Assembly (NCBI RefSeq): GCF_056746865.1
Contig: NZ_CM163382.1
Length of the DNA: 64,000 nucleotides
Direction: 5' to 3' (one strand)
A program made the position numbers and the translations under genes. Positions within the stretch are counted from its first letter, which is position 1; each line of letters starts with the position of its first letter. The notes under the pieces are model-generated. The model was given only the letters and a program-made list of their open reading frames with translations, did no database searches and was not told the origin of the DNA. Of the stretch, positions 3,498 through 62,464 are shown piece by piece.

Positions 3498-5105
3498 TCA
3501 ATGTGCCTTGATATACAACTCTTTGCTGTAGACATAATCCTGGGGATTATGCAGCGGAAAACCGCCAACGTAGGGTTTAAGCAGTTTGATTAACGGCTGA
3601 TAGTAGATAGGAATCAGCGGTGCCTGTTGGTTGATGATCACTTCTGCCTGCTGATACAACGCATTACGCTTTGTCGCATCAGTGATCTGCGTGGCCTGGT
3701 TTAGTAAGGCGTCATACTGCGCATTTTTCCAGTGACCGACGTTTTCTTCACTATCGCTTTTGAGCGTGTTCAGGAAGCTGGAAGCATCATTGTACGTCGC
3801 ATCCCACGACTGCCGAGACAGCATGAAATCACCGGCTCGTCGGGCATCAAGATAGGTTTTCCACTCCATTGTGCGCAGCGTCACCTGTGCACCCAGCCAT
3901 TTTTTCCATTCGGAAGACAACGCTATCGCGGTCTTTTCATGCAGATCGTACTTGTTGTAGAACAGCTCAAAGCGTAGCGGATGAGAGGCGTCGTATCCCG
4001 CCTGTTTCAGCAAGGCTTTTGCCATCGCGACGCGCTCACTCATTGGCTTTTGCAGTTCATCGAACGTCGTCGCGCTAAAGCCTTTTACCTCTGGCGGCGT
4101 CAGCGTGGTTGCGGGCGTTCTCAACCCCAGTACCTTTTGCGCAATAAGCTGTCGATCAACCGTAAGATATAGCGCCCGACGCACTCGCACATCGTTAAAT
4201 GGCGGTTTCTCAAGGTTGAAGTTGTAATATTCGCTGTTCAGACGCGGAATAATTCGTAGCTCGCCAGGCAGTGATTTTTCAATGGCGGGAATTTGCTGCG
4301 CCGGAACCCAGGTGAGATCGACCTCTCCCGCGCGATAGCGGTTATAGCCGGTGACCGAATTATCTAGCGCCAGATACTCAACCTGTTGCAATACTGTATG
4401 TTGCGCATCGCGGTACTTTGGATTTTTGCGTGCAGTAATCTTTTCGTTAACTACCCACTGATCAAGCACAAAGGCACCGTTGTAAACCATGTTCTCTGGC
4501 TTACTCCAGCTATCGCCATGTTTAGCGATGACATGATGAGGAACCGGGAACAGCGTCGGCCAGGCGAGCATCGTCGTGAACCAAGGAACCGGCTGCTCAA
4601 GCGTAACTTCAAGAGTACGATCATCCGTCGCTTTGACACCCAGCGATGTAACATCTGCTTTACCCGCAACAATAGCTGCGGCATTGTTAATGTGCGCCTG
4701 TGCCAGATAGCCAGCAAAAGGGCTTGCCGTTTTCGGGTCAACCGCGCGCTGCCAGCCGAGGACAAAATCCTCTGCCGTCAGAGGCTGACCGTCGGACCAC
4801 TGCAAACCGCTACGCAGATGGAAAATATAGCGCTTGCCGCCGTCCAGTATCTCCCAGCGTTCAGCCTGAGCGGGCTGCACCTGGCCTTCACCGTCCATCC
4901 ATACCAGACCTTCAAACAGATCCAGCACAATCTGCGCGGCAGTATTCTCCTCCACCTTTTGCGGGTCGAGCGTACCTGGGTCGCTATGATTGTTGTAACG
5001 AAAGACTTGTTGCGGGGCGAGCGGTGTGTTGGCGGGAACGTCAGCAGCGTAGAGAGGAGCCGCACTTACCAGGCTGACCAGCCATAATAAATTTCGCGTA
5101 TACAT
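3498..5105 (-). CDS. ygiS: Periplasmic solute-binding protein (ABC transporter family 5, oligopeptide-binding like)
   Basis: ORF 3498..5168 trimmed to internal Met preceding signal peptide MYTRNLLWLVSLVSAAPLYA; 535 aa like YgiS. Confidence 0.8.
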   Translation of the reverse strand: MYTRNLLWLVSLVSAAPLYAADVPANTPLAPQQVFRYNNHSDPGTLDPQKVEENTAAQIVLDLFEGLVWMDGEGQVQPAQAERWEILDGGKRYIFHLRSGLQWSDGQPLTAEDFVLGWQRAVDPKTASPFAGYLAQAHINNAAAIVAGKADVTSLGVKATDDRTLEVTLEQPVPWFTTMLAWPTLFPVPHHVIAKHGDSWSKPENMVYNGAFVLDQWVVNEKITARKNPKYRDAQHTVLQQVEYLALDNSVTGYNRYRAGEVDLTWVPAQQIPAIEKSLPGELRIIPRLNSEYYNFNLEKPPFNDVRVRRALYLTVDRQLIAQKVLGLRTPATTLTPPEVKGFSATTFDELQKPMSERVAMAKALLKQAGYDASHPLRFELFYNKYDLHEKTAIALSSEWKKWLGAQVTLRTMEWKTYLDARRAGDFMLSRQSWDATYNDASSFLNTLKSDSEENVGHWKNAQYDALLNQATQITDATKRNALYQQAEVIINQQAPLIPIYYQPLIKLLKPYVGGFPLHNPQDYVYSKELYIKAH

Positions 5106-5237
5106 GGTATTCCTTACCGGAGAAATTATAAGCCCAACAACAATACGCCTGTGGCATTGTTCGCTCAAACTTATCGCGAGTGATTTGGCTCACACTCCGG
5201 TAAAGAAAAAAGCGAGTTGCCCCCGCTTTTCCATTAA

Positions 5238-5633
5238 TTAACGGATTTCATTCAATAGTTCTGGATGCTTATCCAGAACACGTAAAAGTTTGATTGTGGA
5301 AGGATGAGGTTGGGCATTGCCTTTTTCGTAACGCGAAAACGCATTTACACCTCCCCCAAAAATTTCGCTTGCCTCTTTTTGGGTAAGAGAGAGCTTTTTT
5401 CGAACCTTCACTATAAATTCAGGTGCCACTGTTTCGGCATTCACCGAAGCCCGAAATGCCTTTACTTGCGCCATGAAAGCATCTGACTCTTCTTTATTCA
5501 TGATGCTCTCTTCGCAATGGACACAATATAAACCGTGGATACCTTTCAATACTGTTTTTCGTCCACGGAAGGTGTATGGAATATCTTTAATGCCAGAAAC
5601 CATTTCTCCCTGGTGGCAAACCGGACATTTCAT
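5238..5633 (-). CDS. mqsA: MqsA antitoxin (HTH-Xre, zinc-binding N-terminal domain)
   Basis: 131 aa; MKCPVCHQGEM...CVHCEE zinc motif plus C-terminal HTH; 1 bp downstream of mqsR. Confidence 0.9.
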   Translation of the reverse strand: MKCPVCHQGEMVSGIKDIPYTFRGRKTVLKGIHGLYCVHCEESIMNKEESDAFMAQVKAFRASVNAETVAPEFIVKVRKKLSLTQKEASEIFGGGVNAFSRYEKGNAQPHPSTIKLLRVLDKHPELLNEIR

Positions 5634-5634
5634 A

Positions 5635-5931
5635 TTACTTCTCCTTAAACGAGACGATCAGTACGTCATGAATTACCGTAATTTTAAGATAAACCTGGCC
5701 TGTAACAAGCCTGGGTCTGTAAACATCCTGCCAGATAGTATGATCAGAGTAGGTGGTCATGCTTTTATAAAAGTCGCTCTCTGATAATCCAATGATAACA
5801 TTACACATACCATCAAAATCCAAACCTAACTCATCTGCATTTAACAGGGCACTACGTGTTGTACGAACTTGCCCGGCATTGACAAGTTTTTTAACCTGAC
5901 TCAAACGTGTATGTGGTGTGCGTTTTTCCAT
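5635..5931 (-). CDS. mqsR: MqsR mRNA interferase toxin
   Basis: 98 aa; MEKRTPHTRLSQVKKLVNAGQVRTT matches MqsR; toxin-first operon with mqsA. Confidence 0.9.
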   Translation of the reverse strand: MEKRTPHTRLSQVKKLVNAGQVRTTRSALLNADELGLDFDGMCNVIIGLSESDFYKSMTTYSDHTIWQDVYRPRLVTGQVYLKITVIHDVLIVSFKEK

Positions 5932-5961
5932 AACCCCCGCCTCCCTGTTACTTTAGTTATA

Positions 5962-6004
5962 ACCTAAAAGGTTAATTACAGCAATGAAAAAGCACCTAAA
6001 AGGT
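5962..6004. promoter_or_regulatory. Two MqsA operator palindromes (ACCT-AAA-AGGT) upstream of mqsR
   Basis: Sequence AACCTAAAAGGTT at 5961-5973 and ACCTAAAAGGT at 5994-6004, 30-70 bp upstream of mqsR start; matches known MqsA binding palindrome. Confidence 0.7.
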
Positions 6005-6135
6005 TAGTTAGATGTACGGAGATAGTGACCACACAAAACGTATTCTTTAAGGAAAGTGATTGACCATATAAGAAAGTGGCGCATTAGTAGCGCCAGTTTG
6101 AAGCAGGAATTTATAAGGGAAGCTGGAGTCAGGCA

Positions 6136-6618
6136 TCACGCCAACGGCACATAAACATCCGTTTCCAGTCGCTGCTCTGTCACCCCTTCGGCAAGATTGG
6201 TGTAGTGAAACAGAATCGGTGCTTTACGCATTTTCTCGCCGCTTGCAGGCAGCCAGTGGCGAATGATGCCCCATACCGTGTGTGAAATATCGTCCAGCTC
6301 GCCAACGTGGCGGGCCACGGCATAACGTCCACCGGTAAGTTCACCATTGCTCACACCATAACGATTATCGGGAATCGGTTCGCTAACGCTGCCGCAGATA
6401 TCAAAGCGAAACGCTTCCGGTGCGGTGGTGGCAGGGTCGTCCCAGGCGACGCCAAAAGTCTGGCTTTGGTTAACAGGAGAAAGCCCCGTCTCTTTACGCC
6501 ACATGATAAATTTCGCCACGCTGTAGTTGAGCAATTCAGGGCTACAGCGGTGCGGCAACATCGCCACAGGTATTGATGGGAAATCGATAATGTTTACATC
6601 CAGTGTCAGGTTTGTCAT
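6136..6618 (-). CDS. ygiV: GyrI-like/AraC effector-domain transcriptional regulator
   Basis: 160 aa ORF, matches YgiV length and N-terminus MTNLTLDVNIIDFPSIPVAML. Confidence 0.8.
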   Translation of the reverse strand: MTNLTLDVNIIDFPSIPVAMLPHRCSPELLNYSVAKFIMWRKETGLSPVNQSQTFGVAWDDPATTAPEAFRFDICGSVSEPIPDNRYGVSNGELTGGRYAVARHVGELDDISHTVWGIIRHWLPASGEKMRKAPILFHYTNLAEGVTEQRLETDVYVPLA

Positions 6619-6670
6619 TTTGCCTCCCTGCGAAATTATTCCCGGGAACGCGTCCCGGGAGCGGTAACAA

Positions 6671-7063
6671 TTACGGATTTACTTTGCGGATCTGTTTGAC
6701 GTCAATTTCAACAGAATTCCAGTCTTTATCGACTTCACCCTGAATCTCAACCGTATCTTTCGGCGTCACCGTCACGCCGTTCCAGCGTTTGTGGTCGATA
6801 TCAACATTGATAGTACCGCTGGCATCTTTGAACACGTAGAGATCGTCAGAGATGCGTTCAACGATATTGCCGCGCAGGGTTACCCAGGTGTCGTCACGCA
6901 GGGATTTTGCGCTTTCTACAGTCGTTACGCTGCCGTTCGGCCCCTGGAATCCTCCGGCCTGACTTTGCGTTGCCGATGGGCCAGAAAAACCGCCCTGCTC
7001 TGCTGCCATCACCGGTGCGCTGCACAGGGCCATTACTGCGATTACTGCTGCGAATTTTTTCAT
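6671..7063 (-). CDS. ygiW: BOF/YgiW family periplasmic OB-fold stress protein
   Basis: ORF trimmed to MKKFAAVIAVMALCSAPVMA signal peptide; 130 aa; divergent from qseBC. Confidence 0.8.
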   Translation of the reverse strand: MKKFAAVIAVMALCSAPVMAAEQGGFSGPSATQSQAGGFQGPNGSVTTVESAKSLRDDTWVTLRGNIVERISDDLYVFKDASGTINVDIDHKRWNGVTVTPKDTVEIQGEVDKDWNSVEIDVKQIRKVNP

Positions 7064-9598: not shown

Positions 9599-9925
9599 AT
9601 ATCAGTACGCTCATAAAAATCCATTTATAATTATCAACATGACACGTTGATACTTTCATCTTTTACTTATTCAAAGCCATATTTTCAATCCCCAAAAAAA
9701 CCGAACCAAACGTGTAAATTATTCCGGTGCGAGTAAGAATTGTAAGAATTATGAGGAATGGCTATCAGTATTGTCATTTTCAGAAAATATTTATCCTGCA
9801 TCGGTGAGTCAGAGTAAGATCAGACTTTTGCTAAATTCGCAAAAGACTTTGCACATTTTGCTAATTTCACCGTACCGCTCTGTGACGTACTATAGTCGGC
9901 AAACGTCTCACCTTGAGGTTAAAAA

Positions 9926-18977: not shown

Positions 18978-19461
18978 TACTGTTCAATATTGCCCCGTTT
19001 ACCGGGGCAATTTATTATACTTCGCAAATCATCACCCCCATCTATATATAATCAATCACATCCATCACTTTTATTTAACATTAATTCCTAATTTAATATT
19101 AAATCGTCATATGTAAGCGATACTGTAATTAAATTAATCAATAAAATCACTTGGTAACCTATTGTTTTATGAGTTTATTTATATCCAACACCGCATCAAA
19201 AATAGATTTAATAATTAAAAAACAATGTCGCTGGGATCACACTACACAATATTGAATATTGTTATTGATATATTGCCCACCTAGTATCGACCAAAAGAAA
19301 ATATTTGTTACAGAGAAATACAAAAATTCTAAAACCAGTAAAAAATATTCATAACGATTATTATTAATACATTTTAATTCACAAAACAAATTTATTAGCA
19401 CCACCTCAACAGTCGATATTCATCATTATTATATATTTGCGTTATATAAGGAGATATATCC

Positions 19462-21258
19462 ATGTTTGATAAATATAGAAAAACTCTGGTAGCCGGAGCT
19501 GTGGCGATAACTCTGGGTTTGTCAGCACCGGGGGTGATGGCAGCAGGTTTTAAACCCGCACCACCTGCCGGGCAACTGGGTGCAGTCATTGTCGATCCCT
19601 ACGGCAATGCACCACTGACCGCTTTGGTTGACTTAGATAGCCATGTCATTTCTGATGTCAAAGTTACCGTCCATGGGAAGGGCGAAAAAGGCGTAGAAAT
19701 CAGCTATCCCGTGGGTCAGGAATCACTAAAAACTTATGATGGTGTACCGATTTTTGGTCTTTATCAGAAATTTGCTAACAAAGTGACCGTTGAGTGGAAA
19801 GAAAACGGCAAGGTCATGAAAGATGATTATGTGGTGCACACTTCGGCCATCGTCAATAATTACATGGATAACCGCTCTATCTCCGATTTACAACAGACCA
19901 AAGTTATTAAAGTCGCACCGGGTTTTGAAGATCGCCTCTATCTGGTTAATACCCACACCTTTACCGCCCAAGGTTCCGATCTCCACTGGCATGGTGAGAA
20001 AGATAAAAATGCCGGTATCCTTGATGCGGGTCCGGCAACCGGCGCACTACCTTTTGATATCGCGCCCTTTACTTTCATTGTCGATACCGAAGGTGAATAC
20101 CGCTGGTGGCTGGATCAAGACACTTTCTACGATGGTCGTGACCGCGATATCAACAAGCGTGGTTATCTGATGGGTATCCGCGAAACACCACGCGGCACCT
20201 TTACCGCTGTACAAGGTCAGCACTGGTACGAGTTCGACATGATGGGGCAGGTGCTCGAAGATCACAAACTACCGCGCGGATTTGCTGACGCCACTCATGA
20301 GTCCATTGAGACGCCTAATGGCACAGTATTGTTGCGCGTAGGTAAGAGCAATTACCGTCGCGATGACGGCGTACACGTCACCACCATTCGTGACCATATC
20401 CTCGAAGTCGATAAATCTGGTCGCGTTGTCGATGTATGGGATCTGACCAAGATCCTCGATCCGAAACGCGATGCACTGCTCGGCGCGCTGGATGCAGGTG
20501 CAGTTTGCGTTAACGTTGACCTTGCCCATGCAGGACAACAGGCAAAACTGGAACCGGATACACCGTTCGGCGACGCGCTGGGTGTAGGGCCAGGTCGTAA
20601 CTGGGCGCACGTTAACTCAATCGCCTATGACGCAAAAGATGACTCAATCATCCTCTCCTCTCGCCACCAGGGTGTTGTGAAAATTGGTCGTGATAAGCAA
20701 GTGAAATGGATCCTTGCGCCCTCTAAAGGTTGGGAAAAACCGCTGGCCAGCAAGCTGCTGAAACCGGTTGATGCTAACGGTAAGCCAATTACCTGTAACG
20801 AAAATGGCCTGTGCGAAAACTCAGACTTCGACTTTACCTACACCCAGCATACCGCCTGGATTTCCAGCAAAGGAACGCTCACCATTTTTGATAATGGCGA
20901 TGGGCGTCATCTGGAACAACCTGCCTTACCAACCATGAAATACTCCCGCTTTGTGGAATATAAGATTGATGAGAAGAAAGGCACCGTTCAGCAAGTGTGG
21001 GAATACGGTAAAGAACGTGGCTACGATTTCTATAGCCCGATTACCTCCATCATTGAATATCAAGCCGACCGTAACACCATGTTTGGCTTCGGTGGTTCTA
21101 TTCATTTGTTCGATGTCGGGCAGCCAACCGTCGGTAAGTTGAACGAAATCGATTACAAAACCAAAGAAGTGAAAGTGGAAATCGACGTGCTGTCAGATAA
21201 ACCCAATCAGACTCACTATCGTGCACTGTTAGTCCGTCCACAACAGATGTTCAAATAA
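19462..21258 (+). CDS. assT: Arylsulfate sulfotransferase (periplasmic, signal peptide)
   Basis: 598 aa; signal peptide MFDKYRKTLVAGAVAITLGLSAPGVMA; family recognised from translation; followed by dedicated DsbL/DsbI genes. Confidence 0.85.
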   Translation: MFDKYRKTLVAGAVAITLGLSAPGVMAAGFKPAPPAGQLGAVIVDPYGNAPLTALVDLDSHVISDVKVTVHGKGEKGVEISYPVGQESLKTYDGVPIFGLYQKFANKVTVEWKENGKVMKDDYVVHTSAIVNNYMDNRSISDLQQTKVIKVAPGFEDRLYLVNTHTFTAQGSDLHWHGEKDKNAGILDAGPATGALPFDIAPFTFIVDTEGEYRWWLDQDTFYDGRDRDINKRGYLMGIRETPRGTFTAVQGQHWYEFDMMGQVLEDHKLPRGFADATHESIETPNGTVLLRVGKSNYRRDDGVHVTTIRDHILEVDKSGRVVDVWDLTKILDPKRDALLGALDAGAVCVNVDLAHAGQQAKLEPDTPFGDALGVGPGRNWAHVNSIAYDAKDDSIILSSRHQGVVKIGRDKQVKWILAPSKGWEKPLASKLLKPVDANGKPITCNENGLCENSDFDFTYTQHTAWISSKGTLTIFDNGDGRHLEQPALPTMKYSRFVEYKIDEKKGTVQQVWEYGKERGYDFYSPITSIIEYQADRNTMFGFGGSIHLFDVGQPTVGKLNEIDYKTKEVKVEIDVLSDKPNQTHYRALLVRPQQMFK

Positions 21259-21275
21259 TTAAGAAGGGAATAAAA

Positions 21276-21944
21276 ATGTCGAAATTAGGGATCTCATCAC
21301 TATTTAAAACCATACTGCTTACCGCAGCTTTGGCTGTTTCATTTACCGCTTCTGCATTTACCGAAGGCACGGATTACATGGTTCTGGAAAAACCTATTCC
21401 GAATGCCGACAAAACGCTGATTAAGGTATTTAGCTACGCCTGCCCGTTCTGTTACAAGTACGACAAAGCGGTTACCGGTCCGGTATCGGAAAAAGTGAAA
21501 GATATCGTTGCTTTTACTCCATTCCATCTGGAAACAAAAGGTGAATACGGCAAACAAGCAAGCGAAGTCTTTGCGGTCTTGATCAATAAAGATAAAGCAG
21601 CAGGTATTTCATTATTTGATGCTAACTCTCAGTTTAAGAAAGCCAAGTTTGCTTATTACGCGGCTTATCATGACAAAAAAGAACGCTGGTCTGATGGTAA
21701 AGATCCGGCTGCCTTTATCAAAACCGGACTGGACGCCGCAGGTATGAGTCAGGCCGATTTTGAAGCCGCGCTGAAAGAGCCTGCAGTTCAGGAAACGCTG
21801 GAAAAATGGAAAGCCTCTTATGAAGTTGCAAAAATCCAGGGCGTTCCGGCGTATGTCGTCAATGGTAAATACCTGATCTACACCAAGAGTATTAAATCTA
21901 TTGACTCAATGGCAGACCTTATCCGCGAGTTAGCAAGCAAATAA
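21276..21944 (+). CDS. dsbL: Periplasmic thiol:disulfide oxidoreductase DsbL (DsbA paralogue)
   Basis: 222 aa; signal peptide and CPFC active-site motif ([14 protein letters not shown]). Confidence 0.8.
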
Positions 21945-21958
21945 CAGGGAAACAGGCT

Positions 21959-22630
21959 ATGGGTATTAAGGGAATGTGGAAAGACCTTCGCACTTCACCG
22001 GTGGACACGCTGGTAAGATGGCAAGAACAACGTTTTTTGTGGTTGTTAATGGCCATTGCGATGGGCGCGTTAATTATCCTGGCGCACTCTTTCTTCCAGA
22101 TCTATCTCTACATGGCACCCTGTGAGCAATGTGTATACATTCGCTACGCCATGTTTGTGATGGTTATTGGAGGATTGGTTGCAGCGATCAACCCAAAGAA
22201 CATCATCCTAAAGCTAATTGGCTGCGTGATGGCATTTTACGGCAGCATTTTGGGACTGAAGTTTTCGCTCAAACTGAACGATATCCACCATGCAGTACAT
22301 AATCCGGATCCCGATTCACTGTTTGGCGTACAGGGTTGCTCTACCGATCCAACTTTTCCCTTTAACCTGCCGCTGGCACAGTGGGCACCAAATTGGTTCA
22401 AGCCTACCGGGGATTGTGGCTATGACGCACCAATCGTTCCTGATGGCGTCACACTGAGCAGCACGCAACAGTGGTTTGTGGAAATGTATCAGCAATCTGA
22501 AGGCTGGTATCTGCTACCACCATGGCATTTTATGAATATGGCTCAGGCTTGTATGCTGGCTTTTGGTATGTGTCTGGTGCTGCTGGTCATTATGAGTGGC
22601 GCATGGGCGCTTAAAATCATCAGAGGCTAA
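21959..22630 (+). CDS. dsbI: Membrane disulfide oxidoreductase DsbI (DsbB paralogue)
   Basis: 223 aa polytopic membrane protein with paired cysteines (CEQC) immediately downstream of dsbL. Confidence 0.8.
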
Positions 22631-22675
22631 CTCAGCAACACCCGAAGCCAGTCGTTCTGGCTTCGGGTTCTTTTA

Positions 22676-25569: not shown

Positions 25570-25790
25570 CTTAGGAGTGGCGGCATATAGCCAAAATAAC
25601 GTGAGCGGGTCCATGCCCGACAGAATCGTTACTCTCTCCCATCCGGACTCTAACCGTCGGCCCCGGAATTACACCGGATCTGCTGTCCTTTGAGTTCGCA
25701 CCCAAAGCGCTCGCGGGCTTTCAACTGAGTTGATTTACCGCCGGTGGGGAATTTCGCCCCGCCCTGAGAATAAGCGGATTCACTATAACG
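25570..25790 (-). ncRNA. sroG: FMN riboswitch (RFN element, sroG) in ribB 5' leader
   Basis: Minus-strand sequence contains conserved aptamer blocks CAGATCCGGTGTAATTCCGGGGCCGACGGTTAGAGTCCGGATGGGAGAGAGTAACG upstream of ribB. Confidence 0.8.
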
Positions 25791-25896: not shown

Positions 25897-26196
25897 ATGA
25901 TTGACCCGAAAAAAATTGAGCAAATCGCTCGCCAGGTTCACGAATCAATGCCTAAAGGAATCAGGGAGTTCGGGGAAGATGTGGAGAAAAAAATCCGCCA
26001 AACCCTACAAGCGCAACTGACGCGTCTCGATCTGGTGAGCCGCGAAGAATTCGACGTACAGACGCAAGTCCTGTTACGGACTCGTGAGAAACTGGCATTA
26101 CTGGAGCAGCGCATCAGTGAACTGGAAGCGCGCAATAATTCGGTAGCAGATCTTCAATCTCCTCCGGCTATCCCGCCTATTGATAAAGCAGAATAA
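25897..26196 (+). CDS. ubiK: Ubiquinone biosynthesis accessory factor UbiK (YqiC)
   Basis: ORF trimmed to [21 protein letters not shown]; coiled-coil small protein. Confidence 0.85.
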
Positions 26197-26204
26197 AGCA
26201 ACAC

Positions 26205-29204: not shown

Positions 29205-29350
29205 CTGAAACGGGAAAGCCCCTCCCGAAGAAGGGGCCTTATAGAAGGAAAGGGTTATGATGAAGCTCGTCATCATACTGATTGTGTTGTTACTAGTAAG
29301 TTTCCAGGCTTATTAACAACCAATTCAGAGGGGGGAGAAATCCTCCCTTA
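29205..29350 (-). ncRNA. sibD: Sib antisense RNA (antitoxin to Ibs), copy 1; boundaries approximate
   Basis: Antisense to ibs ORF; GC hairpin GCCCCT-CCCGAAGA-AGGGGC at 29217-29240 fits a minus-strand terminator; boundaries inferred. Confidence 0.5.
29257..29316 (+). CDS. ibsD: Ibs-family type I toxin (19 aa hydrophobic peptide MMKLVIILIVLLLVSFQAY)
   Basis: ATG ATG AAG CTC GTC ATC ATA CTG... TAA; matches Ibs toxin family; located between yqiK and hldE as ibsD/ibsE are in E. coli. Confidence 0.7.
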   Translation: MMKLVIILIVLLLVSFQAY

Positions 29351-29582
29351 CCCTTGTTCCTTTACTTTAGGTTGAAAAAAAATCAGCGTCAAGAAGGTTT
29401 CTCTATCCCACATCCCTGGCCCAAAAAGCCGGGGATTTTTTATATCTGCGTTCCGCTAAAAGGTGCAAATGATCAGGCTGTTGCAGCATTTTGCGTGACG
29501 GCTCGGGGAAGGCAAAACTGCATCAGGGAAAGCATTGCGCGGGGTCTGGCGCTCATCAACAATCGGGGAGTCAGCAAGGGGC

Positions 29583-29727
29583 TGAAACGGGAAAGCCCCT
29601 CCCGAAGAAGGGGCCTTGTATAAGGAAAGGGTTATGATGAAGCTGGTCATCATACTGATTGTGTTGTTACTCGTAAGTTTCGCAGCTTATTAACAGCCAA
29701 TCAGAGGGGGGAGAAATCCTCCCTCAC
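29583..29727 (-). ncRNA. sibE: Sib antisense RNA, copy 2; boundaries approximate
   Basis: Antisense to second ibs ORF; same hairpin structure as copy 1. Confidence 0.5.
29634..29693 (+). CDS. ibsE: Ibs-family type I toxin (MMKLVIILIVLLLVSFAAY)
   Basis: Second copy of 19-codon hydrophobic ORF; differs from copy 1 by Q17A. Confidence 0.7.
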   Translation: MMKLVIILIVLLLVSFAAY

Positions 29728-29812
29728 CCTTGTTCCTTTACTTTAGGTTGAAAAAAAAACAGCGTCAATAGGCCTGCCAGGTTCGAAGCGAGATCTGTGA
29801 ACCGCTTTCCGG

Positions 29813-37712: not shown

Positions 37713-38534
37713 TCAAAAGAACACGACATACACCGCAGCCGCCACAATAAAGCGATAAATGGCGAACGGTATAAACGAAATGCGCTTAATCAATTGCAGG
37801 AAGGTTTTAATCGCTATCAGCGCCACCACAAAAGCGGTGATAAACCCAACGGCAAACATCGGGATATCGCCGGTTGTCAGGAAGCCCCAGCTTTTGTAGA
37901 GATCGAGCGCCGTTGCGCCCATCATCATCGGCACCGCCAGCAGGAACGAAAACTCGGAAGCAGCGTAACGGCTCACCCCCATCAGCATCCCACCTGAAAT
38001 GGTCGCCCCGGAGCGAGAGAAACCCGGCCACAGCGCCAGACACTGGAAACAGCCAATCATAAACGCCTGACGATAGGTCATATCATCGAGACCCGGCGCA
38101 CGCGGCTCTTTCGGCTTCAGGCATTCAGCGGCAATCAGCAACAGACCGCCAACGACCAGCGCATACATCACATTTATTGGATTAAACAACGACTTAATCG
38201 TGTCGTGGAACAACAGCCCCAATACTACCGCTGGGATCATGCCAAGCAGAATGTGGATCAGCGTTAAACGACCTTTGCTTTCTCCTTCGTGCTGCAACGG
38301 GCGGCCAAAGTGGATGCCAATCAGGCCAAACAGACGCCGCCAGAACATCACTACTACCGCCAGAATTGATCCTAACTGGATCACAACCTCAAAGGTTTTC
38401 GCCGTGTCGCCCTCAAACCCCAACAAGTGACCGACAATAATCATATGGCCCGTGCTGGATACCGGCAGAAATTCTGTCAATCCTTCGACCACACCCAATA
38501 TTGCCGCTATCAGCAGCGAGTGCATATCGCTCAT
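37713..38534 (-). CDS. uppP: Undecaprenyl-diphosphatase
   Basis: 273 aa from second Met [30 protein letters not shown]. Confidence 0.9.
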
Positions 38535-49878: not shown

Positions 49879-50003
49879 ATTTACTCCTTTCTAACATCAC
49901 CAGGAAAAGTATAACGGATTGAAAATACATTGTTTATAAAAACAGCAGGCGCGCGGTAATGGCTGGATTGCGACACGGAGTTACTTTATAATCCGCTACC
50001 ATG

Positions 50004-50078
50004 GCCCCTTAGCTCAGTGGTTAGAGCAGGCGACTCATAATCGCTTGGTCGTTGGTTCAAACCCAACAGGGGCCACCA
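50004..50078 (+). tRNA. ileX: tRNA-Ile (anticodon CAU; lysidine-modified Ile2 type)
   Basis: GGCCCCTTAGCTCAGTGGTTAGAGCAGGCGACTCATAATCGCTTGGTCGTTGGTTCAAACCCAACAGGGGCCACCA; cloverleaf with CAT anticodon in loop CTCATAA; encoded CCA. Confidence 0.9.
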
Positions 50079-50088
50079 TACACAACAA

Positions 50089-50121
50089 AGGGTTAGCTAA
50101 TAAACCAGCTAACCCTTTTTC
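50089..50121 (+). terminator. tRNA-Ile intrinsic terminator
   Basis: AGGGTTAGCT-AATAAACC-AGCTAACCCT followed by TTTTTCTTTTT. Confidence 0.65.
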
Positions 50122-50176
50122 TTTTTCCTTTGAATTGGGTCAGGTAATGGGTCAGGTAAGCTTTTTTCCATCTGAC

Positions 50177-51022
50177 TCAGATGGCTGATAATTGTCCCGG
50201 ATAACGCTTTGCAATGATGTCATTTAGCCGATCAACCAGTTCTGGTTTTCTGAATGTGATATGCGCGGAGCCCTTCTTAAAGTATCTGATGCTGAACATC
50301 TCATCTTCATAGCTCTCTTTACCCTGAACAGACTGAATGTGCTCATCCAGACGAATAGTGATGTTTTCCCGATTGTCGGGGATTGGTTTACCGCTGAACA
50401 GGTGCAACATTCTTTCCAGATCGGCGAGTCGGTCAGCCTGTTGTCCGGTGATAAGATGAAATCCCCACCGGTCCCATCTCACCAGATTGTTGACGATAAT
50501 TTTACTGCCAAATTTACAGGGGCAATTGGTTTTGTAATTCCAGTTCAGCCCTCTGAAGACGTTGATCACCCCTCGCTCAAACACCTCATCCTTATTCTGG
50601 TGCAGTTGTTCAAATGTGCTCAGGATGTTCGCTTCGCTGATTTCCGGAAAATTATCGTACTCCAGTGACCGGTACCATGTCTCACGGGCCTGTGCATCCA
50701 TTAAGGAAAGCATCCCGGAACGTTGCATCAAGTCACGCCAGATTTCACGATCGAGATTGTGTGTGATGGCTTTCATTGCCGTTTCAGGTTTCTCCATGAG
50801 CCAGCAGCCACAGCGAAAATCCTGTTTCATCGCCCAGTCCAGTGCGGTTTTACCGCCAATACTTTCTGTCATTGCTGAGATTTCAGCCAGTTGCCGGATA
50901 AGTGTGTTGATTTGCAGCAGTGTACTTTTTCGTACAGCCAGAATGTGGCGGATACTGGTTGAGCAGATAACGTCCGTATGCCCGTTGACTACTTCCGGAC
51001 GGGAGGCTGTGATATCAGACAT
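50177..51022 (-). CDS. Uncharacterised island protein (281 aa; possibly DUF4942 family)
   Basis: Long clean ORF at tRNA-proximal end of island; family assignment from memory only. Confidence 0.55.
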   Translation of the reverse strand: MSDITASRPEVVNGHTDVICSTSIRHILAVRKSTLLQINTLIRQLAEISAMTESIGGKTALDWAMKQDFRCGCWLMEKPETAMKAITHNLDREIWRDLMQRSGMLSLMDAQARETWYRSLEYDNFPEISEANILSTFEQLHQNKDEVFERGVINVFRGLNWNYKTNCPCKFGSKIIVNNLVRWDRWGFHLITGQQADRLADLERMLHLFSGKPIPDNRENITIRLDEHIQSVQGKESYEDEMFSIRYFKKGSAHITFRKPELVDRLNDIIAKRYPGQLSAI

Positions 51023-51118
51023 AATCGATATTCCTTTTTGCAGATAAATGAAAACGCCAGCCCTGTTCAGGCTGGCGTCAGTGGAATGAAGTCTGGTGAG
51101 TGAGATGATGAGTGAAAC

Positions 51119-51316
51119 TCACCGGTTCGGGGGCTGAAGCTGCAGTTGGCGCAGGGTACGGATATCCTCCCTGGCCTGTTCAATACAGGACAACAGGGCT
51201 GTCGAATCCGTTTTATCCTCATCGTTGTCAAAGATAATTCCGGATTCACAGTCGATATTGTCCTGCAGCCACGCAATCAGAATATCCAGCGCTGTTTCCG
51301 TGGTTAATGATTTCAT
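51119..51316 (-). CDS. Small uncharacterised island protein (65 aa from MKSLTTET; possibly DUF957)
   Basis: ORF 51119..51361 trimmed to internal Met to avoid overlap with upstream ORF; acidic small protein. Confidence 0.4.
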   Translation of the reverse strand: MKSLTTETALDILIAWLQDNIDCESGIIFDNDEDKTDSTALLSCIEQAREDIRTLRQLQLQPPNR

Positions 51317-51327
51317 GTTGTTTCTGG

Positions 51328-51816
51328 TTACCAGTCGAAAGTGGGTAAATCCGGCAGACACCCGGCGCTGGCATCCAGATGAATAAGACTGACGCCATAA
51401 CGCCGGATGAGAGTGACAACCAGACGGCGGAAGGTTTTTGACAGGCCCAGACGTTTAAGGTGTAGCACCGGATACGACAAAGCATCGGTACGTAACAGAT
51501 ACCCTCTGCCTGTAAAATGAATCCATTCTGATTCGCCGGTGTCATTCGTCTGATGCGACAGCGAGTACAGCCAGGTGTTGTCCGTTTCCGTGATATGTGC
51601 GGTACTGCAGCGTATGCCGGTAAGGGCAGCAAATGGTGGCGTGCAGTCTGCTGAGGTCCGGTCAGATTCATCAACAACACGAAGGGAGTAGCCGTTATCG
51701 CAGATCATGTTAATCAGTTCAGCGAGATTAACACCATCAATGTCAACGACAATTCGCCCCATATTCAGTGCCTGTACGTTAACGCTGTCGGCTTCCAGTG
51801 TCAGGGTCAGTTGCAT
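51328..51816 (-). CDS. YeeW-like uncharacterised protein downstream of cbtA
   Basis: 162 aa ORF immediately after cbtA stop, position equivalent to yeeW in CP4-44. Confidence 0.45.
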
Positions 51817-52190
51817 CGTTTCGACTCCTGATGCTTACCCAGGGTAATGTTATTTACCGTTCTGTAATTGTCGCGGGTCATCAGGCCGGTTGCCCGGCGA
51901 GCCCGGAGAATATCAATACTGTTTATTAACTGAGAGCGGGTACAGGCGCTGAATCCCGGCTGGTCGGTACGTACCAGTGCGTATTTTTCAACGAGAAAGT
52001 TCACCGCATCGCACAGTGAAATGCCTGCCTCAATATGCTGCTCAATCACACGTTCATCAGCGAACGGTGTGTCATTCAGCGTAAGGCCGTAATGCTGGTC
52101 CAGCAGTCGGGTGAGCAGTGTCTGCCAGATTTCAACCGGAGACGGGCGTGAACTGGCCGCCTGCCCGGGTAATACAGGTAATGTTTTCAT
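51807..52190 (-). CDS. cbtA: CbtA/YeeV-family type IV toxin (cytoskeleton-binding toxin)
   Basis: ORF trimmed to [23 protein letters not shown]...; family conserved sequence. Confidence 0.8.
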
Positions 52191-52279
52191 ACTGAAGATT
52201 TTCCTGATATGCAGAGATGAAAAATGGAAAAGTGGCGTGGTGAAAGCACCAGGCCGGAGCAGAAGGTTATTCTGGATAG

Positions 52280-52648
52280 TTACCTTTTCGTTTCGGGCGT
52301 CGGATAAACAGCCATATAAACGTAGCCACAACTGCCGAGGGTGTCGGCTTCGCAGGTCAGCCCTTTTGCATACAGCGTGACGGTATGCTGATGGCGGGAA
52401 TTCAGTTCACCGCTGGTGAGCATGAGTTCCAGTTGTTTCATCAGCAGCGGAAAGGCCTGGTCCAGGTGGTACGAATCCGCGTCGCTGAACCGGCCTCTGA
52501 TACCGGCGCGGTCGGCAAGGTAATGCAACCGGTTGCCCTCCTGCACCAGACGGGCGCCAAAACAAGGTGTCACGGTACAGGGCAGCCCCCACCAGGGGCG
52601 GTCGTGATTGTCATCGGGATGCGTTGTCCCGGGCAGTGTGTCTGACAC
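52280..52648 (-). CDS. cbeA: CbeA/YeeU-family antitoxin
   Basis: 122 aa; [48 protein letters not shown]. Confidence 0.8.
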
Positions 52649-52727
52649 AATAAAATCCTCACAGAAAATTGGTTAAGAATGGTCCGGTGGTGGCGATAAT
52701 TCTGCTCTTCTGAATGCCCTTCCGGAC

Positions 52728-52949
52728 TCAGTTCAGGGTGACGCTCATCAGCCGGACATACGGACCAAAACTGTCCTTACGGCGTTCTGCAAACACAGCC
52801 AGCACACCGGGAATATCCTGCACTTCACGGCCGGTATATGTATCCGTGCTACCGTGCCAGCGGTATTTGCCGGTACAGAACGGAAAAAGACGGGATGCCG
52901 GATGTTGTTGGTGAATACGCATGGCTTCACCACGGGTGATGATTTTCAT
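52728..52949 (-). CDS. YeeT/DUF987 protein
   Basis: 73 aa; MKIITRGEAMRIHQQHPASRLFPF; conserved partner upstream of cbeA. Confidence 0.7.
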   Translation of the reverse strand: MKIITRGEAMRIHQQHPASRLFPFCTGKYRWHGSTDTYTGREVQDIPGVLAVFAERRKDSFGPYVRLMSVTLN

Positions 52950-53017
52950 GGTGTGATACCTCTTAAGACAGAAGATAAAAGTGAAAACAGGTGTGATGTG
53001 GTGGTGACGGTGACGGG

Positions 53018-53494
53018 TTAAAGCAGACCGTGTTCCGCAAAGGAGAAAACCTGGCTGCCACCGACTATCAGATGGTCCGGTACCCGGATATCCACCAGGC
53101 CCAGTGCCTGTACCAGACGTTCCGTGATAAGGCGGTCTGCCTTGCTGGGTGTGACTTCACCGGACGGGTGATTGTGTGCCAGCACCACGGCAGCGGCATT
53201 GTGGTACAGGGCACGTTTAATCACTTCCCGGGGATGGACTTCCGTGCGGTTGATGGTGCCGGTGAAGAGGGTTTCACCGGCAATCAGCTGATTCTGGTTG
53301 TTCAGATACAGCACCCGGAACTCTTCCCGCTCCAGTCCCGCCATGTTCAGAATCAGCCACTCCCGTGCCGCATGCGTGGAGGTGAAGGCCACGCCGGGTT
53401 CATGAAGATGGCGGTCCAGGGTTTTCAGGGCCCGCTGAATGAGGCTGCGCTCGCCGGGCGTCATCTCTCCGGGCAGAAAAGAAAGCTGTTGCAT
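53018..53494 (-). CDS. RadC-like JAB-domain protein (YeeS/YfjY family)
   Basis: 158 aa; JAMM motif HNHPSGEVTPSKAD. Confidence 0.85.
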   Translation of the reverse strand: MQQLSFLPGEMTPGERSLIQRALKTLDRHLHEPGVAFTSTHAAREWLILNMAGLEREEFRVLYLNNQNQLIAGETLFTGTINRTEVHPREVIKRALYHNAAAVVLAHNHPSGEVTPSKADRLITERLVQALGLVDIRVPDHLIVGGSQVFSFAEHGLL

Positions 53495-53508
53495 TGTTCC
53501 GGCCCCTT

Positions 53509-53994
53509 TCAGTCAATGATGCGCATAATGGCGTTGCATTCCGGATGCTGCAGGGCGTAATCCCGCAGCCGGTAATAATGGACCGTCATGGCATAACACT
53601 CCGTACGACAGGCATGATGGCTGTACGTCATCAGACAGGCAGCAATGCCGGCGGCTTCCGGGCTCATTTCAGCGCGGTTACCGTTCATGGCACTGAACAG
53701 TACCCATGTTTCGTCATCATCGTCATCCGGTTCGGGTGCCATAAATGCCCCGCCGTTGTTCAGGGTGTACAGATTCCAGATACCACCACAGTAGTCTTCG
53801 CACAGACGATCCATCCAGCCGAAGACACGGGGCTCCAGGGTCACCCACTGTGGAATGAGGCCAAAATGCTGCGGCCAGAAGCTGATGCGCTGTTCATCAG
53901 GGACGAGGGTGGCAACCAGTTGAGGCGGGTTATTCTCTGATACAGCGGTTACGGAAACAGAAGGTGTGGTGGAATTATGCAAAACGGTTGTCAT
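53509..53994 (-). CDS. Antirestriction protein (ArdB/KlcA/YfjX family)
   Basis: 161 aa; family-typical C-terminal region; position upstream of radC-like gene as in CP4-57 yfjX. Confidence 0.7.
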   Translation of the reverse strand: MTTVLHNSTTPSVSVTAVSENNPPQLVATLVPDEQRISFWPQHFGLIPQWVTLEPRVFGWMDRLCEDYCGGIWNLYTLNNGGAFMAPEPDDDDDETWVLFSAMNGNRAEMSPEAAGIAACLMTYSHHACRTECYAMTVHYYRLRDYALQHPECNAIMRIID

Positions 53995-54084
53995 GAGATT
54001 ATTCCTTATAAAAAGTAAATGAATGGAAGAAGTCGCGGGGCAGGGACGGACATGAGTCAGAACTGCGCTTTCAGGGAAAAGGCA

Positions 54085-54903
54085 TCAGCGCATACTCTTC
54101 AGCAGTGTTTCTGCCATCACCCACAATGCGCGATTGAGCTTAATGTCGGTGTCGATGCTGTGAATGGCACGGGTATGGATACGTTTTCCTCTGGCACTGC
54201 GACCGGAAATCCCGCCTTTCAGCATATTCTCCTGGATGGTCTGATAAGCACTCCACAGGTCCTTACCGTAATCCTCCCGGCGTCGCGGTGTCAGAATGTC
54301 AGCAGCGGTGACGGGCTGATGTTCGTCACCATAACGGTAAGTCAGTGCCGCCTGTGCCAGCGCCTGGCGTGCCGGTGGCGGCAGGACCAGCGACTGCATG
54401 GCATCACGCTTCTCCTCAATCCGGTCAAAAACCCCCACCACCTCGTAAGCCCCTTCGATAACTTTCTCCACTACGTCTCCCCGGTGTGGAACACGCACTT
54501 CCCCCAGAGACTGACCACAGACGCATCCGTTCTGGCAGACGAACCTGAAGTAACCCGGCAGCATCTGGTAGCTGGAGGTACCGTCATGGGAGTTCAGCAG
54601 GATGATTTCAGGGACATGTTGTCCGTTTATCTCCCCGTCACGGCGCAGACGCAGCATGTGTTTGGTGTATCCCCGGCGGCCCGGGTCGCGCACGCGGGTC
54701 TGGCAGGCGAAGAATGGCTGGAAGCCTTCCCGCTGCAGGCTTTCCAGCACGGTGATGGTGGGGATCCAGGTATAGTTCTCGCTTCTGGATGTGTGTTTCT
54801 CTTCCCCGAATACGCTGGGGACGACCTGCATCAGTTCTTCACGGGTTAAGGGGCGGTCACGGCGTATCTGGTTCGCATAACCAAAACGACTGGCTAATCG
54901 CAT
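54085..54903 (-). CDS. DUF932 protein (YfjQ/YafZ family)
   Basis: 272 aa; MRLASRFGYANQIRRDRPLTREELMQVVPSVFGEEKH. Confidence 0.75.
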   Translation of the reverse strand: MRLASRFGYANQIRRDRPLTREELMQVVPSVFGEEKHTSRSENYTWIPTITVLESLQREGFQPFFACQTRVRDPGRRGYTKHMLRLRRDGEINGQHVPEIILLNSHDGTSSYQMLPGYFRFVCQNGCVCGQSLGEVRVPHRGDVVEKVIEGAYEVVGVFDRIEEKRDAMQSLVLPPPARQALAQAALTYRYGDEHQPVTAADILTPRRREDYGKDLWSAYQTIQENMLKGGISGRSARGKRIHTRAIHSIDTDIKLNRALWVMAETLLKSMR

Positions 54904-55174
54904 GATTTATTCCTTATGAATGAGTTAGCGGTGTAAATGAAAAAGCCGCGTCTCCCGGAGAAGACGCGGCCTGATGGACGAAATGAATGACGTTTATTGT
55001 CTGAGAAGCCCTTCACTGGCGAGCTGCGTATTTTTATGGAAGGAGATCACCCAATAACCCCATCGGGATCGGGCAATAACCGGCCAAATTGTGAACGATT
55101 CAGATGCCATTTGGCAGCAAAAGAGCCTTCGGCAATAAACGTGATGTACAACCCGGCATATCTGTTGCTCCCTG

Positions 55175-55207
55175 AAAGTAAAAAGCCCCGGTCATTATGA
55201 CCGGGGC
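55175..55207 (-). terminator. Ag43 intrinsic terminator
   Basis: GCCCCGGTCAT-TATGACCGGGGC hairpin followed on minus strand by TTTTTACTTTC. Confidence 0.6.
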
Positions 55208-55229
55208 CTGAAGGGGAGTGACCTGATTA

Positions 55230-58076: not shown

Positions 58077-58293
58077 CAGCTTTTCCTTACAGAGGGTGAA
58101 TAAAAAAGCCGGTACCCACAAATGTGGATACCGGCAGGTACAAAACAGCATGGTCAGATAAAGTGGTTTTTCCCGGACATAAATGCTTCCCCTCTCTCAT
58201 CCGCCAGAGAAGTATCAGTCCGTTGTGTGCAATTCCGTTCTGCATGATGAAGAGATTCAACTGCCTTTTCGCAGGCCATTAACCACTATAAAC

Positions 58294-58329
58294 GATCGAT
58301 AGTAACGATCGATACCTGTTTTATTGATC
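58294..58329. promoter_or_regulatory. Three clustered Dam GATC sites (Ag43 phase-variation switch / OxyR operator)
   Basis: GATC at 58294, 58307 and 58326 within 36 bp (AACGATCGATAGTAACGATCGATACCTGTTTTATTGATCG) ~220 bp upstream of Ag43 start. Confidence 0.7.
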
Positions 58330-58448
58330 GTTTTATTCTATTGATTGCAAGGCGGTCACGCAAGAGAAACAGGAGGATCATGAGGTGTTTGTGTCATGTT
58401 TTCAGTTGGTTAACGCAATGTAATCAGGCATTTCCCCTGGCAGACTGT

Positions 58449-59321
58449 TCAGAAGAAAATCCAGTTCCATACAGCGCGGGCAACAGAGACCACCGAGTCA
58501 CGGACGGCACGCAGAACCGTGCGTGCAACAGAGGCAATACAGACGCTCTCCGCCGTGTCAAATATCCGGTCCACCGCACCGGTAAACTGTTCACGGGCCT
58601 GAGACCGGACAGATTCCGTGCGCAGCTCGTCCTGCAGGCGGGTCATCAGGGGACTGGCGGCATGGTCGGGAAGCGCTGTCATGAGCGCACTGACCAGCGT
58701 ATCCAGTTCCCAGCCGGTGCAGGCCGATACGGCCACAACCGGATGTACGGGTCGGAACAGCCGGAATACCGCATCTGTTTTCTCACGAATGTTCTGTGCC
58801 TGTGCGGGAGAAGGCTGAATGCCGGCCATATCCCATTCATGGCAGGGCTCCGTTTTGTCGGCCTGCGTCACCACAAACAGTACCCGCTGATGTCCCCGGT
58901 GCAGGATGTGTCGCCAGAAATACTCATCCACAGACAGGGCACGGTCATCGGCTTTAATCAGCCACAGTACCAGGTCAAGTTCAGGCAGAATGTTACGGTA
59001 CAGGGCTTCATACTCTGCATCCCTGTCCCGGCTCTCGCCCACCCCGGGCAGGTCAGTGATAATCATGCTGTGACCGTGGCCACTCAGACGGAAGCGCTGC
59101 ACTTCCCGGGTGCCGGCGTGAACATCACTGACCGGTGTGACTTCCCCCTGAAACAGCGCATTACAGAGTGAGGATTTACCGGCCCCGCTTTTACCCATAA
59201 TGCCAATCACGGGTTCGTGGCTGGTGAGTTTACGCAGATGTTCCAGGATGTGACGGGAAAGCGAATAAGGCAGGGAGGAGAGCGGTTTTTCAATTGCCTC
59301 AATGGCATCAGACGGATTCAT
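58449..59321 (-). CDS. YfjP/YeeP/YkfA-family GTPase
   Basis: P-loop GKSGAGKSS, G3 DLPG, G4 TQADK; start taken at MNPSDAIEAIEK (ORF extends to 59360). Confidence 0.75.
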   Translation of the reverse strand: MNPSDAIEAIEKPLSSLPYSLSRHILEHLRKLTSHEPVIGIMGKSGAGKSSLCNALFQGEVTPVSDVHAGTREVQRFRLSGHGHSMIITDLPGVGESRDRDAEYEALYRNILPELDLVLWLIKADDRALSVDEYFWRHILHRGHQRVLFVVTQADKTEPCHEWDMAGIQPSPAQAQNIREKTDAVFRLFRPVHPVVAVSACTGWELDTLVSALMTALPDHAASPLMTRLQDELRTESVRSQAREQFTGAVDRIFDTAESVCIASVARTVLRAVRDSVVSVARAVWNWIFF

Positions 59322-59584
59322 ATATGTATTCCCGGTGAAAAAAGACAAAACCCCGCGCACCGGAAAGGTGGCGGGGGATTCACGGAGATAATATCTGTCT
59401 GAAATTATTTAGAATGCACCTGGTGCACTGCAAAGGAAAGGCAGTATTCCGTTCCTCCTCCTTGTCGTGAATACCCCAGGTATCTCACAATGTACACCGA
59501 CTTACTCCGGGGCTGCCTGAACCACAAGATTGCTGTAGAATTGCCCCCAATGATTCAGGTCCAAACCAGGCAAATGGATTAAAA

Positions 59585-62343: not shown

Positions 62344-62464
62344 TTGACCATTGCTACCGACCGGGCCTCCTTAACATCCGGTCAGTATATAGACTATTTT
62401 TTACGCGCCGGAAGTCACTCTTAACGCCCTTCCGGCTCTTGCCAGGCGGCACAAAGGATGCGCT

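Follow-up and report, generated by a model that had tools for sequence, protein, structure and literature searches.

The MqsR/MqsA module of Escherichia coli K-12 (YgiU/YgiT, b3022/b3021; structures 3HI2, 3GN5, 3O9X and 2KZ8) is among the best-characterised toxin-antitoxin loci. Crystal structures of toxin-antitoxin complexes have been obtained, and 3O9X was deposited for the promoter-bound antitoxin. MqsR was shown to cleave RNA at GCU and, more broadly, at GCA or GC, with K56 and Y81 being strictly required, and its inhibition by MqsA was explained by a steric block of substrate binding (PMC4803016, PMC9636575). MqsA dimers were shown to bind two palindromes, which are located in the K-12 sequence U00096.2 at 3166595-609 (palindrome 1, 15 bp) and 3166629-639 (palindrome 2, 11 bp) (PMC4894380), and to repress the promoter pRA (PMC6918082). 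MqsR displaces MqsA from the operator (PMC7167474, PMC5422877). In the description given in PMC6918082, pRA is very weak and MqsA-repressed, and two sigma-70 promoters within the mqsR open reading frame, pA1 and pA2, are constitutive, with neither of them being autoregulated.

Related systems have been identified in a number of other bacteria. In proteobacterial MqsRA loci, like P. putida PP_4205/PP_4204, those of Xylella and several plasmid copies, the toxin gene is also located first and ACCT-N3-AGGT lies over the -10 region, as in the locus described here; however, many homologues, for example those of P. putida, Rhizobium and Magnetospirillum, contain one palindrome and not two. In MqsRAC of E. 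coli C496_10, an RNase toxin of the MqsR family likewise precedes an antitoxin of the MqsA family (PMC9519451), but the system has a third gene, coding for a SecB-like chaperone, and its antitoxin is chaperone-dependent. K-12-type strains are said to be without the tripartite MqsRAC (PMC10783111). HigBA, HicAB and RnlAB share with mqsRA the upstream position of the toxin gene, an HTH antitoxin, extra antitoxin promoters, and the displacement of the antitoxin by the toxin without co-repression (PMC7167474). They belong to other protein families, however, and among these systems only MqsA uses a structured zinc-ribbon domain for binding of the toxin and its C-terminal domain for binding of DNA (PMC4803016, PMC2791442).

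This paper describes an mqsRA locus in a 64-kb stretch of DNA, referred to as the window, which originates from a non-K-12 E. coli. The window differs from K-12 by an assT-dsbLI insertion, by an island located at the ileX tRNA and by the absence of yqiGHI and IS2.

Genes and operators of the locus

The locus at 5238-6010 is almost certainly the canonical type II toxin-antitoxin module mqsRA of the E. coli chromosome, and it forms part of an accessory cassette of 927 bp in the ygiV/ygiS interval. DNA, proteins, operators and neighbours all match the K-12 system. The DNA is 100% identical to that of K-12 MG1655 across the 773 bp of 5238-6010, and in the larger interval 4500-6700 a single SNP was identified, at 4953 in ygiS. 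Both strains have ygiS downstream and ygiV upstream of the module, and the RefSeq annotation of the window also places mqsA and mqsR between these two genes. MqsA is identical at every residue to the PDB chains 2kz8, 3gn5 and 3o9x, and MqsR to 3hi2_B. In Pfam, the MqsA_antitoxin profile matched MqsA end to end (1-131/131, 7.2e-56), with HTH_3 as a second domain at 76-117, and the score of MqsR for its toxin family was above the cut-off. No contrary evidence was found for this identification, and the module is already known in full detail.

The initial annotation had proposed a complete MqsR/MqsA module with a toxin-first operon and a spacing of 1 bp, and the Pfam matches, the PDB identities and the DNA identity to K-12 bear this out. 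The two open reading frames are separated by the single nucleotide 5634, with the minus-strand junction reading AAG GAG AAG TAA T ATG, so that the Shine-Dalgarno sequence of mqsA, AAGGAG, is located within the final codons of mqsR. The Shine-Dalgarno sequence of mqsR is GGGAGG at 5945-5940. The interval proposed for the module takes in both genes and both operators, and the mqsA terminator (5232-5206) lies outside of it.

The residues with known functions are present in both proteins. In MqsA, these are the zinc ligands C3, C6, C37 and C40 (PMC2791442), the DNA-contact residues N97 and R101 (PMC5422877), and the residues F22, R23, K58 and R61 of the N-domain DNA clamp, all of which are intact. 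Mutations of the DNA-binding residues, which the initial annotation had named as the finding that would speak against its reading, were looked for on alignment and not found. In MqsR, the residues K56, Q68, Y81 and K96, to which roles in toxicity have been assigned (PMC2791442, PMC9636575), are all present. All features of a type II MqsR/MqsA system which can be tested on sequence were thus identified: the toxin family, the antitoxin domains, the toxin-first order and the operators together with their contact residues. Growth arrest by MqsR, and neutralisation of the toxin and repression of the operon by MqsA, would be expected here by transfer from the identical K-12 sequences (PMC2791442, PMC6918082).

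Two ACCT-AAA-AGGT palindromes had also been proposed for the promoter, and both were confirmed as exact matches directly upstream of mqsR (Table 1). Both operators read ACCTAAAAGGT on the plus strand and ACCTTTTAGGT on the coding strand; they are spaced 32 bp centre to centre, and the distances from their ends to the downstream ATG of mqsR are 30 and 62 nt. They coincide with the published K-12 palindromes 1 and 2 at a constant offset of 3,160,635. The pattern ACCTNNNAGGT has its third and last match in the 64 kb at 38386; in shuffled sequences a mean of 0.46 matches was obtained, and at least three matches were reached in 1 of 100 shuffles. The number of palindromes is by itself modestly unusual, but the paired identical copies at the mqsR promoter are not due to chance.

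Table 1. Positions of the mqsRA cassette, its genes and its regulatory elements in the window
Feature	Position	Strand	Description
mqsRA accessory cassette	5207..6133	-	927 bp; presence/absence polymorphism between ygiS and ygiV
Intrinsic terminator after mqsA	5206..5232	-	GAAAAGCGGGG-GCAAC-UCGCUUUUUU; A-tract/hairpin/U-tract
mqsA	5238..5633	-	antitoxin and autorepressor, 131 aa; N-terminal zinc ribbon, C-terminal HTH-XRE; Pfam MqsA_antitoxin PF15731
mqsR	5635..5931	-	toxin, 98 aa; GCU/GC-specific endoribonuclease; Pfam MqsR_toxin PF15723, 5.5e-35
pA1, internal constitutive mqsA promoter	5681..5708	-	TTGTTA-16-TAAAAT; predicted start near 5673
pA2, internal constitutive mqsA promoter	about 5792..5800	-	extended -10 TGTTATCAT; predicted start near 5784
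pRA -10, putative	5956..5961	-	TATAAC; predicted pRA start near 5949; AGGT-TATAAT-like junction kept in the Kacie_13, Yersinia, Diaphorobacter and Polaromonas homologues
Proximal MqsA operator (palindrome 1)	5960..5974	.	perfect 15-mer TAACCTAAAAGGTTA; exact core 5962-5972; overlaps putative -10
pRA -35, putative	5979..5984	-	TTGCTG; 17 nt upstream of TATAAC
Distal MqsA operator (palindrome 2)	5994..6004	.	ACCTAAAAGGT; exact pattern match; perfect over 11-13 nt
Terminator-like hairpin	6077..6095	-	TGGCGC-loop-GCGCCA then CTTTCTTATA (terminator scan); promoter-distal cassette edge, just downstream of ygiV

Promoters and terminators

The autorepressed promoter pRA probably corresponds to TTGCTG-17-TATAAC, as judged from the sequence of the region. 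Here, the proximal palindrome fills the spacer and overlaps the -10 hexamer, and the distal palindrome is located just upstream of the -35 hexamer. The consensus promoter scan did not call pRA, with TTGCTG giving 3 of 6 matches at -35. The assignment was kept because the 17-nt spacing and the layout are conserved in homologues, and the weak scan score fits the very low pRA activity which has been published (PMC6918082). The pRA hexamers and all start positions were deduced from the sequence together with the text descriptions of PMC6918082.

The site assigned to pA1 was the sole sigma-70-like call of the scan in 5100-6200, and it agrees with the sigma-70 promoter described within the mqsR open reading frame (PMC6918082). 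A second start has been described at a distance of 111 nt upstream from that of pA1, and its promoter is located a further 8 nt upstream (Fraikin 2019, PMC6918082). The extended -10 element TGTTATCAT was found exactly 111 nt upstream of the predicted pA1 start, which suggested that it represents pA2. The operon proposed in the initial annotation therefore holds with respect to the gene order, but it is incomplete as an account of transcription, since the two constitutive promoters within mqsR also give rise to mqsA transcripts (PMC6918082).

The terminator after mqsA was not called by the terminator scan, and its support came from folding: the minus-strand segment 5240-5196 folds with -12.8 kcal/mol (z = -2.87), and 2 of 200 shuffles were as good. 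For the hairpin at the other edge, the segment 6135-6060 was folded, and its minimum-free-energy structure (z = -2.5) contains the GC stem of 6 bp. This hairpin is likely to insulate pRA from read-through out of ygiV.

The accessory cassette and its plasmid homologues

The mqsRA core was identified in 2297 of 5426 complete E. coli genomes (42%), always with at least 99% identity, and is missing from the other 58%, whereas the flanks are present in essentially all of them. The empty site was analysed in two E. coli without mqsRA (L002 and L003). Here, the homology to the window extends up to 5206 and starts again at 6134, and the two parts are joined by TTCCC. The left boundary of the cassette is thereby located inside the U-tract of the mqsA terminator, and the span of the cassette includes both terminators. 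The cassette has a GC content of 41.1%, compared to 52.0% for the flanks. No target-site duplication, terminal (inverted) repeats or recombinase were found at the 927-bp cassette. In several genomes, IS1 interrupts mqsR at about 5800-5808 and mqsA is intact. A separate presence/absence polymorphism was observed for ygiS, in L003.

By tblastn, homologues of MqsA were identified on 104 plasmids, which originate from many genera of Proteobacteria; 54 of these plasmids are conjugative or mobilizable. Ten plasmid loci, with MqsA identities of 35-66%, were used as a comparison set. The E. coli "plasmid" NZ_MG591698 was left out, since it carries parC, qseBC and ygiS and is evidently chromosomal DNA. 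In all ten loci mqsR is the first gene, with a gap of 1-2 nt or an overlap of 4 nt to mqsA, except for the Vibrio locus with 21 nt. The four zinc cysteines are invariant, K56, Y81 and K96 are present in ten out of ten, and N97/R101 in nine out of ten.

An exact ACCT-N3-AGGT was found within 350 nt upstream of mqsR in five of these ten loci, compared to 0.04 expected from shuffles, and none was found in the remaining 16 kb of the ten loci. Three of them, from Enterobacteriaceae Kacie_13, Pectobacterium and Legionella, contain two palindromes with a spacing of 31-32 bp, an arrangement like that of the window. Palindromes with one mismatch are located at the same place in Diaphorobacter, Burkholderia and Polaromonas, where they abut a -10-like hexamer, and the plasmids of Yersinia similis and Vibrio tasmaniensis contain a variant, ACCCT-N3-AGGGT, at the same place and likewise abutting a -10-like hexamer. 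A Burkholderia match with an N4 spacer, 396 nt upstream, is probably due to chance and was not counted. Several plasmid homologues show a -35 element, 17 nt containing the palindrome, and a -10 element, for example TTGCCA-17-TAGAAT, and this layout supports the assignment of pRA in the window. In Pectobacterium, an open reading frame of 75 aa is located between the operators and mqsR.

The gain from this analysis is a full annotation of the locus in the window, covering the genes, the operators, three promoters, two terminators and the cassette boundaries. The boundaries, the mapping of promoters and terminators and the operator layout across the family are useful annotation and not new biology.

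Regulation and role of the module

For the regulation of the module, the following scheme is proposed. The weak pRA would transcribe mqsR-mqsA from the putative hexamers TTGCTG and TATAAC. MqsA dimers would bind both ACCT-N3-AGGT palindromes via the C-terminal HTH with N97 and R101 and would repress pRA; binding and repression have both been demonstrated in K-12, where the sequence is identical. The overlap of the proximal operator with the -10 hexamer points to occlusion of RNA polymerase, and the two operators, which are separated by about three helical turns, are predicted to be on the same side of the DNA. By analogy to the published system, MqsR would bind to the zinc-ribbon N-domain of MqsA at a ratio of about 1:1 and take MqsA off the DNA, which would result in de-repression and not in co-repression. 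The two internal promoters and the strong AAGGAG ribosome-binding site, whose positions were mapped here, would provide the MqsA excess which is described in the literature despite the toxin-first order. Free MqsR would then be expected to cut RNA at GCU/GC by means of K56 and Y81, as reported, leading to an arrest of translation and growth. The hairpin terminators at both ends may insulate the cassette. A depletion of MqsR cleavage sites in the mRNA of the module itself was also considered and rejected: GCU is present once in mqsR and three times in mqsA, per kb below the window average, but the difference to composition-matched shuffles was not significant (P = 0.12 and 0.30).

The most likely role of the module would be that of a horizontally acquired, self-maintaining and self-regulating addiction-type cassette which is little integrated into host regulatory networks. 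This view is based on the accessory status of the cassette, its GC contrast to the flanks, the plasmid homologues, the IS1 knock-outs of mqsR with an intact mqsA, and the lack of a stress or biofilm phenotype in isogenic strains.

A different role was implied by the initial annotation, namely that MqsA also controls other promoters with the same palindrome and in this way influences stress and biofilm regulation. [quoted passage not shown] Such a palindrome is short enough to recur in a genome. The Wood and Page laboratories reported regulation of rpoS, csgD and cspD together with stress, biofilm and bile phenotypes (PMC4803016, PMC4894380). Overproduced MqsA was shown by EMSA and qRT-PCR to bind and repress p-csgD and p-rpoS (PMC4894380; reviewed in PMC4803016), and the mcbR and spy promoters were bound by MqsA in vitro (PMC2791442).

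However, these effects, reported with MqsA overproduced, were not reproduced at physiological levels (Fraikin 2019, PMC6918082). [quoted passage not shown] When mqsRA was deleted in an isogenic background, no phenotype was seen with respect to biofilm, curli, oxidative stress or bile salts (PMC6918082), and the level and half-life of MqsA were stable under stress (PMC6918082, PMC7167474). According to Fraikin et al. 2019, the earlier results are explained by overexpression, by polar effects on neighbouring genes, such as ygiS and qseBC, and by the use of strains that were not isogenic (PMC6918082).

The window and the genome comparison also speak against a global regulator. The search for further ACCT(N)3AGGT palindromes in promoters, as suggested in the initial annotation, gave none in a promoter within the 64 kb: the N3 palindrome at 38386-38396 is located within bacA/uppP and has no promoter element, and the N2 palindrome at 9910-9919 overlaps the Shine-Dalgarno sequence of mdaB, 6 nt before the ATG at 9926, and is likewise without a promoter element. 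With a looser spacer of N2-4, four matches were present in the window against 1.39 expected, and the two of them that are additional to the operators are at chance level when compared to the same 1.39. A core regulatory role is hard to square with the absence of the module from more than half of the complete E. coli genomes, and the genomes with an IS1-interrupted mqsR and an intact mqsA also argue against it. A role of MqsA as global regulator is therefore considered unlikely. Its control of stress and biofilm genes is a disputed claim of the literature and not an established property, and the label "global regulator of stress and biofilm" should not be passed on as fact.

For the addiction-type cassette, the distribution was also considered in terms of selection. 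It has been conceived that the cassette is a discrete unit which is gained and lost precisely, and that its prevalence of 42% and the recurrent knock-out of the toxin by IS1 reflect an unrecognised selective trade-off, for example between defence against particular phages or plasmids by the bipartite module and the cost of the toxin; this is regarded as quite improbable.

Very improbable, finally, is a function of the bipartite module in phage defence, by abortive infection or persistence, in which infection would lower MqsA or free MqsR, translation would halt, and the benefit would explain the patchy distribution. It is true that the tripartite MqsR/MqsA/MqsC system of E. coli C496_10 gives strong protection against T2 (PMC9519451, PMC10783111), that the distribution of mqsRA is accessory and plasmid-associated, and that plasmid homologues of mqsRA adjoin antirestriction genes, for example ardA. 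However, the protective system requires the SecB-like chaperone and the chaperone-dependent antitoxin, neither of which is present in the window, and according to the authors a defence role of bipartite MqsRA has not been documented (PMC9519451, PMC10783111). The gene downstream of mqsA, located past a terminator, is ygiS, which codes for a periplasmic solute-binding protein (SBP_bac_5, 3.5e-84), and not for a SecB-like chaperone; MqsA, at 131 aa, can be aligned over its whole length to the profile of the bipartite antitoxin and to the PDB chains, and an extension at the C-terminus is absent. An equation of MqsC with YgiS was ruled out, since MqsC is the SecB-like chaperone of another strain (PMC9519451, PMC10783111). 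A search of 50,697 phage records gave no homologue of MqsR. In PADLOC, MqsR gave no match and MqsA only weak HTH matches; a weak HTH similarity of MqsA was also identified to HigA-2 of V. cholerae (E = 4.6e-4).

Variation at the mqsRA site

In E. coli, ygiS (about 3498-5083) was identified as a presence/absence polymorphism in its own right, as seen at a locus lacking mqsRA (L003). HUSEC2011 and similar genomes contain neither ygiS nor mqsRA, yet have retained the sequence corresponding to window positions 5084-5206, and therefore at least three haplotypes exist at the ygiS-mqsRA site. In several other E. coli genomes, mqsR is disrupted by IS1 at one shared site (about 5800-5808; L018 and L019), which lies in the AT-rich -10 region of pA2, the internal mqsA promoter. 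Two different IS1 variants were found there, with about 778 and 858 extra bp, and mqsA is intact, so that the IS1-broken form is an orphan antitoxin allele.

Among the plasmid-borne homologues, the operators themselves differ. In Yersinia similis (L008, 500-600) and Vibrio tasmaniensis (L013, 500-535), ACCT-N3-AGGT is replaced by ACCCT-N3-AGGGT, an A-to-C change per half-site. Despite the altered half-sites, N97 and R101 are retained in the MqsA proteins of both plasmids, as is the GGGxNAFSRYE recognition helix. For the Pectobacterium versatile plasmid (L007, 288-600), both operator palindromes were located 273-304 nt upstream of mqsR, separated from it by an ORF for a hypothetical protein of 75 aa (371-598), which ends 4 nt before mqsR. 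This locus may represent a three-gene operon variant.

Within the window, an mqsRA-like palindrome, ACCTTGAGGT, was identified 6 nt ahead of the mdaB ATG (9926), and its spacing matches that of the csgD site, which is disputed. The mdaB match is probably a chance occurrence, since two extra matches were found where 1.39 were expected.

Relatedness to K-12 and other features of the window

Although mqsRA is identical to that of K-12 MG1655, the window comes from a non-K-12 strain. Collinearity with MG1655 is limited to blocks across the window (1-64000). Only 4 SNPs were identified across the first 9 kb, and the divergence climbs from there, so that 18-19 kb into the window 37 differences are counted per kb, a pattern which suggests a recombination mosaic.

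Insertions and a replaced segment relative to K-12 were also identified (see table). In matching genomes, the 3.7-kb insertion is annotated as coding for an aryl-sulfate sulfotransferase together with DsbA/DsbL-type and DsbI oxidoreductases, and a query spanning it was covered to at least 80% in about 1,508 of 5,426 genomes. At the site of the missing fimbrial cluster, about 70 bp stand in place of about 6.6 kb of K-12 sequence. The 9-bp insertion arises from the neighbouring 9-mer being duplicated in tandem.

Features of the window
Feature	Position	Remarks
ACCTTGAGGT, N2-spaced mqsRA-like palindrome	9910-9919	overlaps mdaB Shine-Dalgarno
9-bp insertion GTAAGAATT vs K-12	9733-9741	ygiZ-mdaB intergenic region
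3.7-kb insertion, not in K-12	18978-22672	between ygiC and ygiD
FMN riboswitch	25627-25775	precedes ribB; 120.9 bits
K-12 ygiL-yqiGHI fimbrial cluster (with IS2) missing	26128-26199	
Two tandem Sib antitoxin RNAs	29242-29392, 29619-29768	Rfam SIB_RNA, 142 and 150 bits
CAU-anticodon tRNA	50003-50078	ARAGORN: Met; RefSeq, equivalent gene: tRNA-Ile
Genomic island	50003-64000	begins directly after CAU-anticodon tRNA
IS102 RNA family match	58095-58331	74 bits; within island, adjoining Ag43 region

The tRNA-linked island and further toxin-antitoxin loci

The genomic island was covered to at least 80% in only 297 genomes. In a close relative, the island contains DUF4942, the cbtA/yeeU type IV toxin-antitoxin pair, yeeS, an antirestriction gene, a GTPase, a type I restriction-modification system (hsdM, hsdS and hsdR) and the Ag43/Cah adhesin, which is a pseudogene in that relative. 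The two Sib RNAs match the ibsD/sibD and ibsE/sibE repeats, which are type I toxin-antitoxin loci, and the window therefore carries at least three further toxin-antitoxin loci besides mqsRA.
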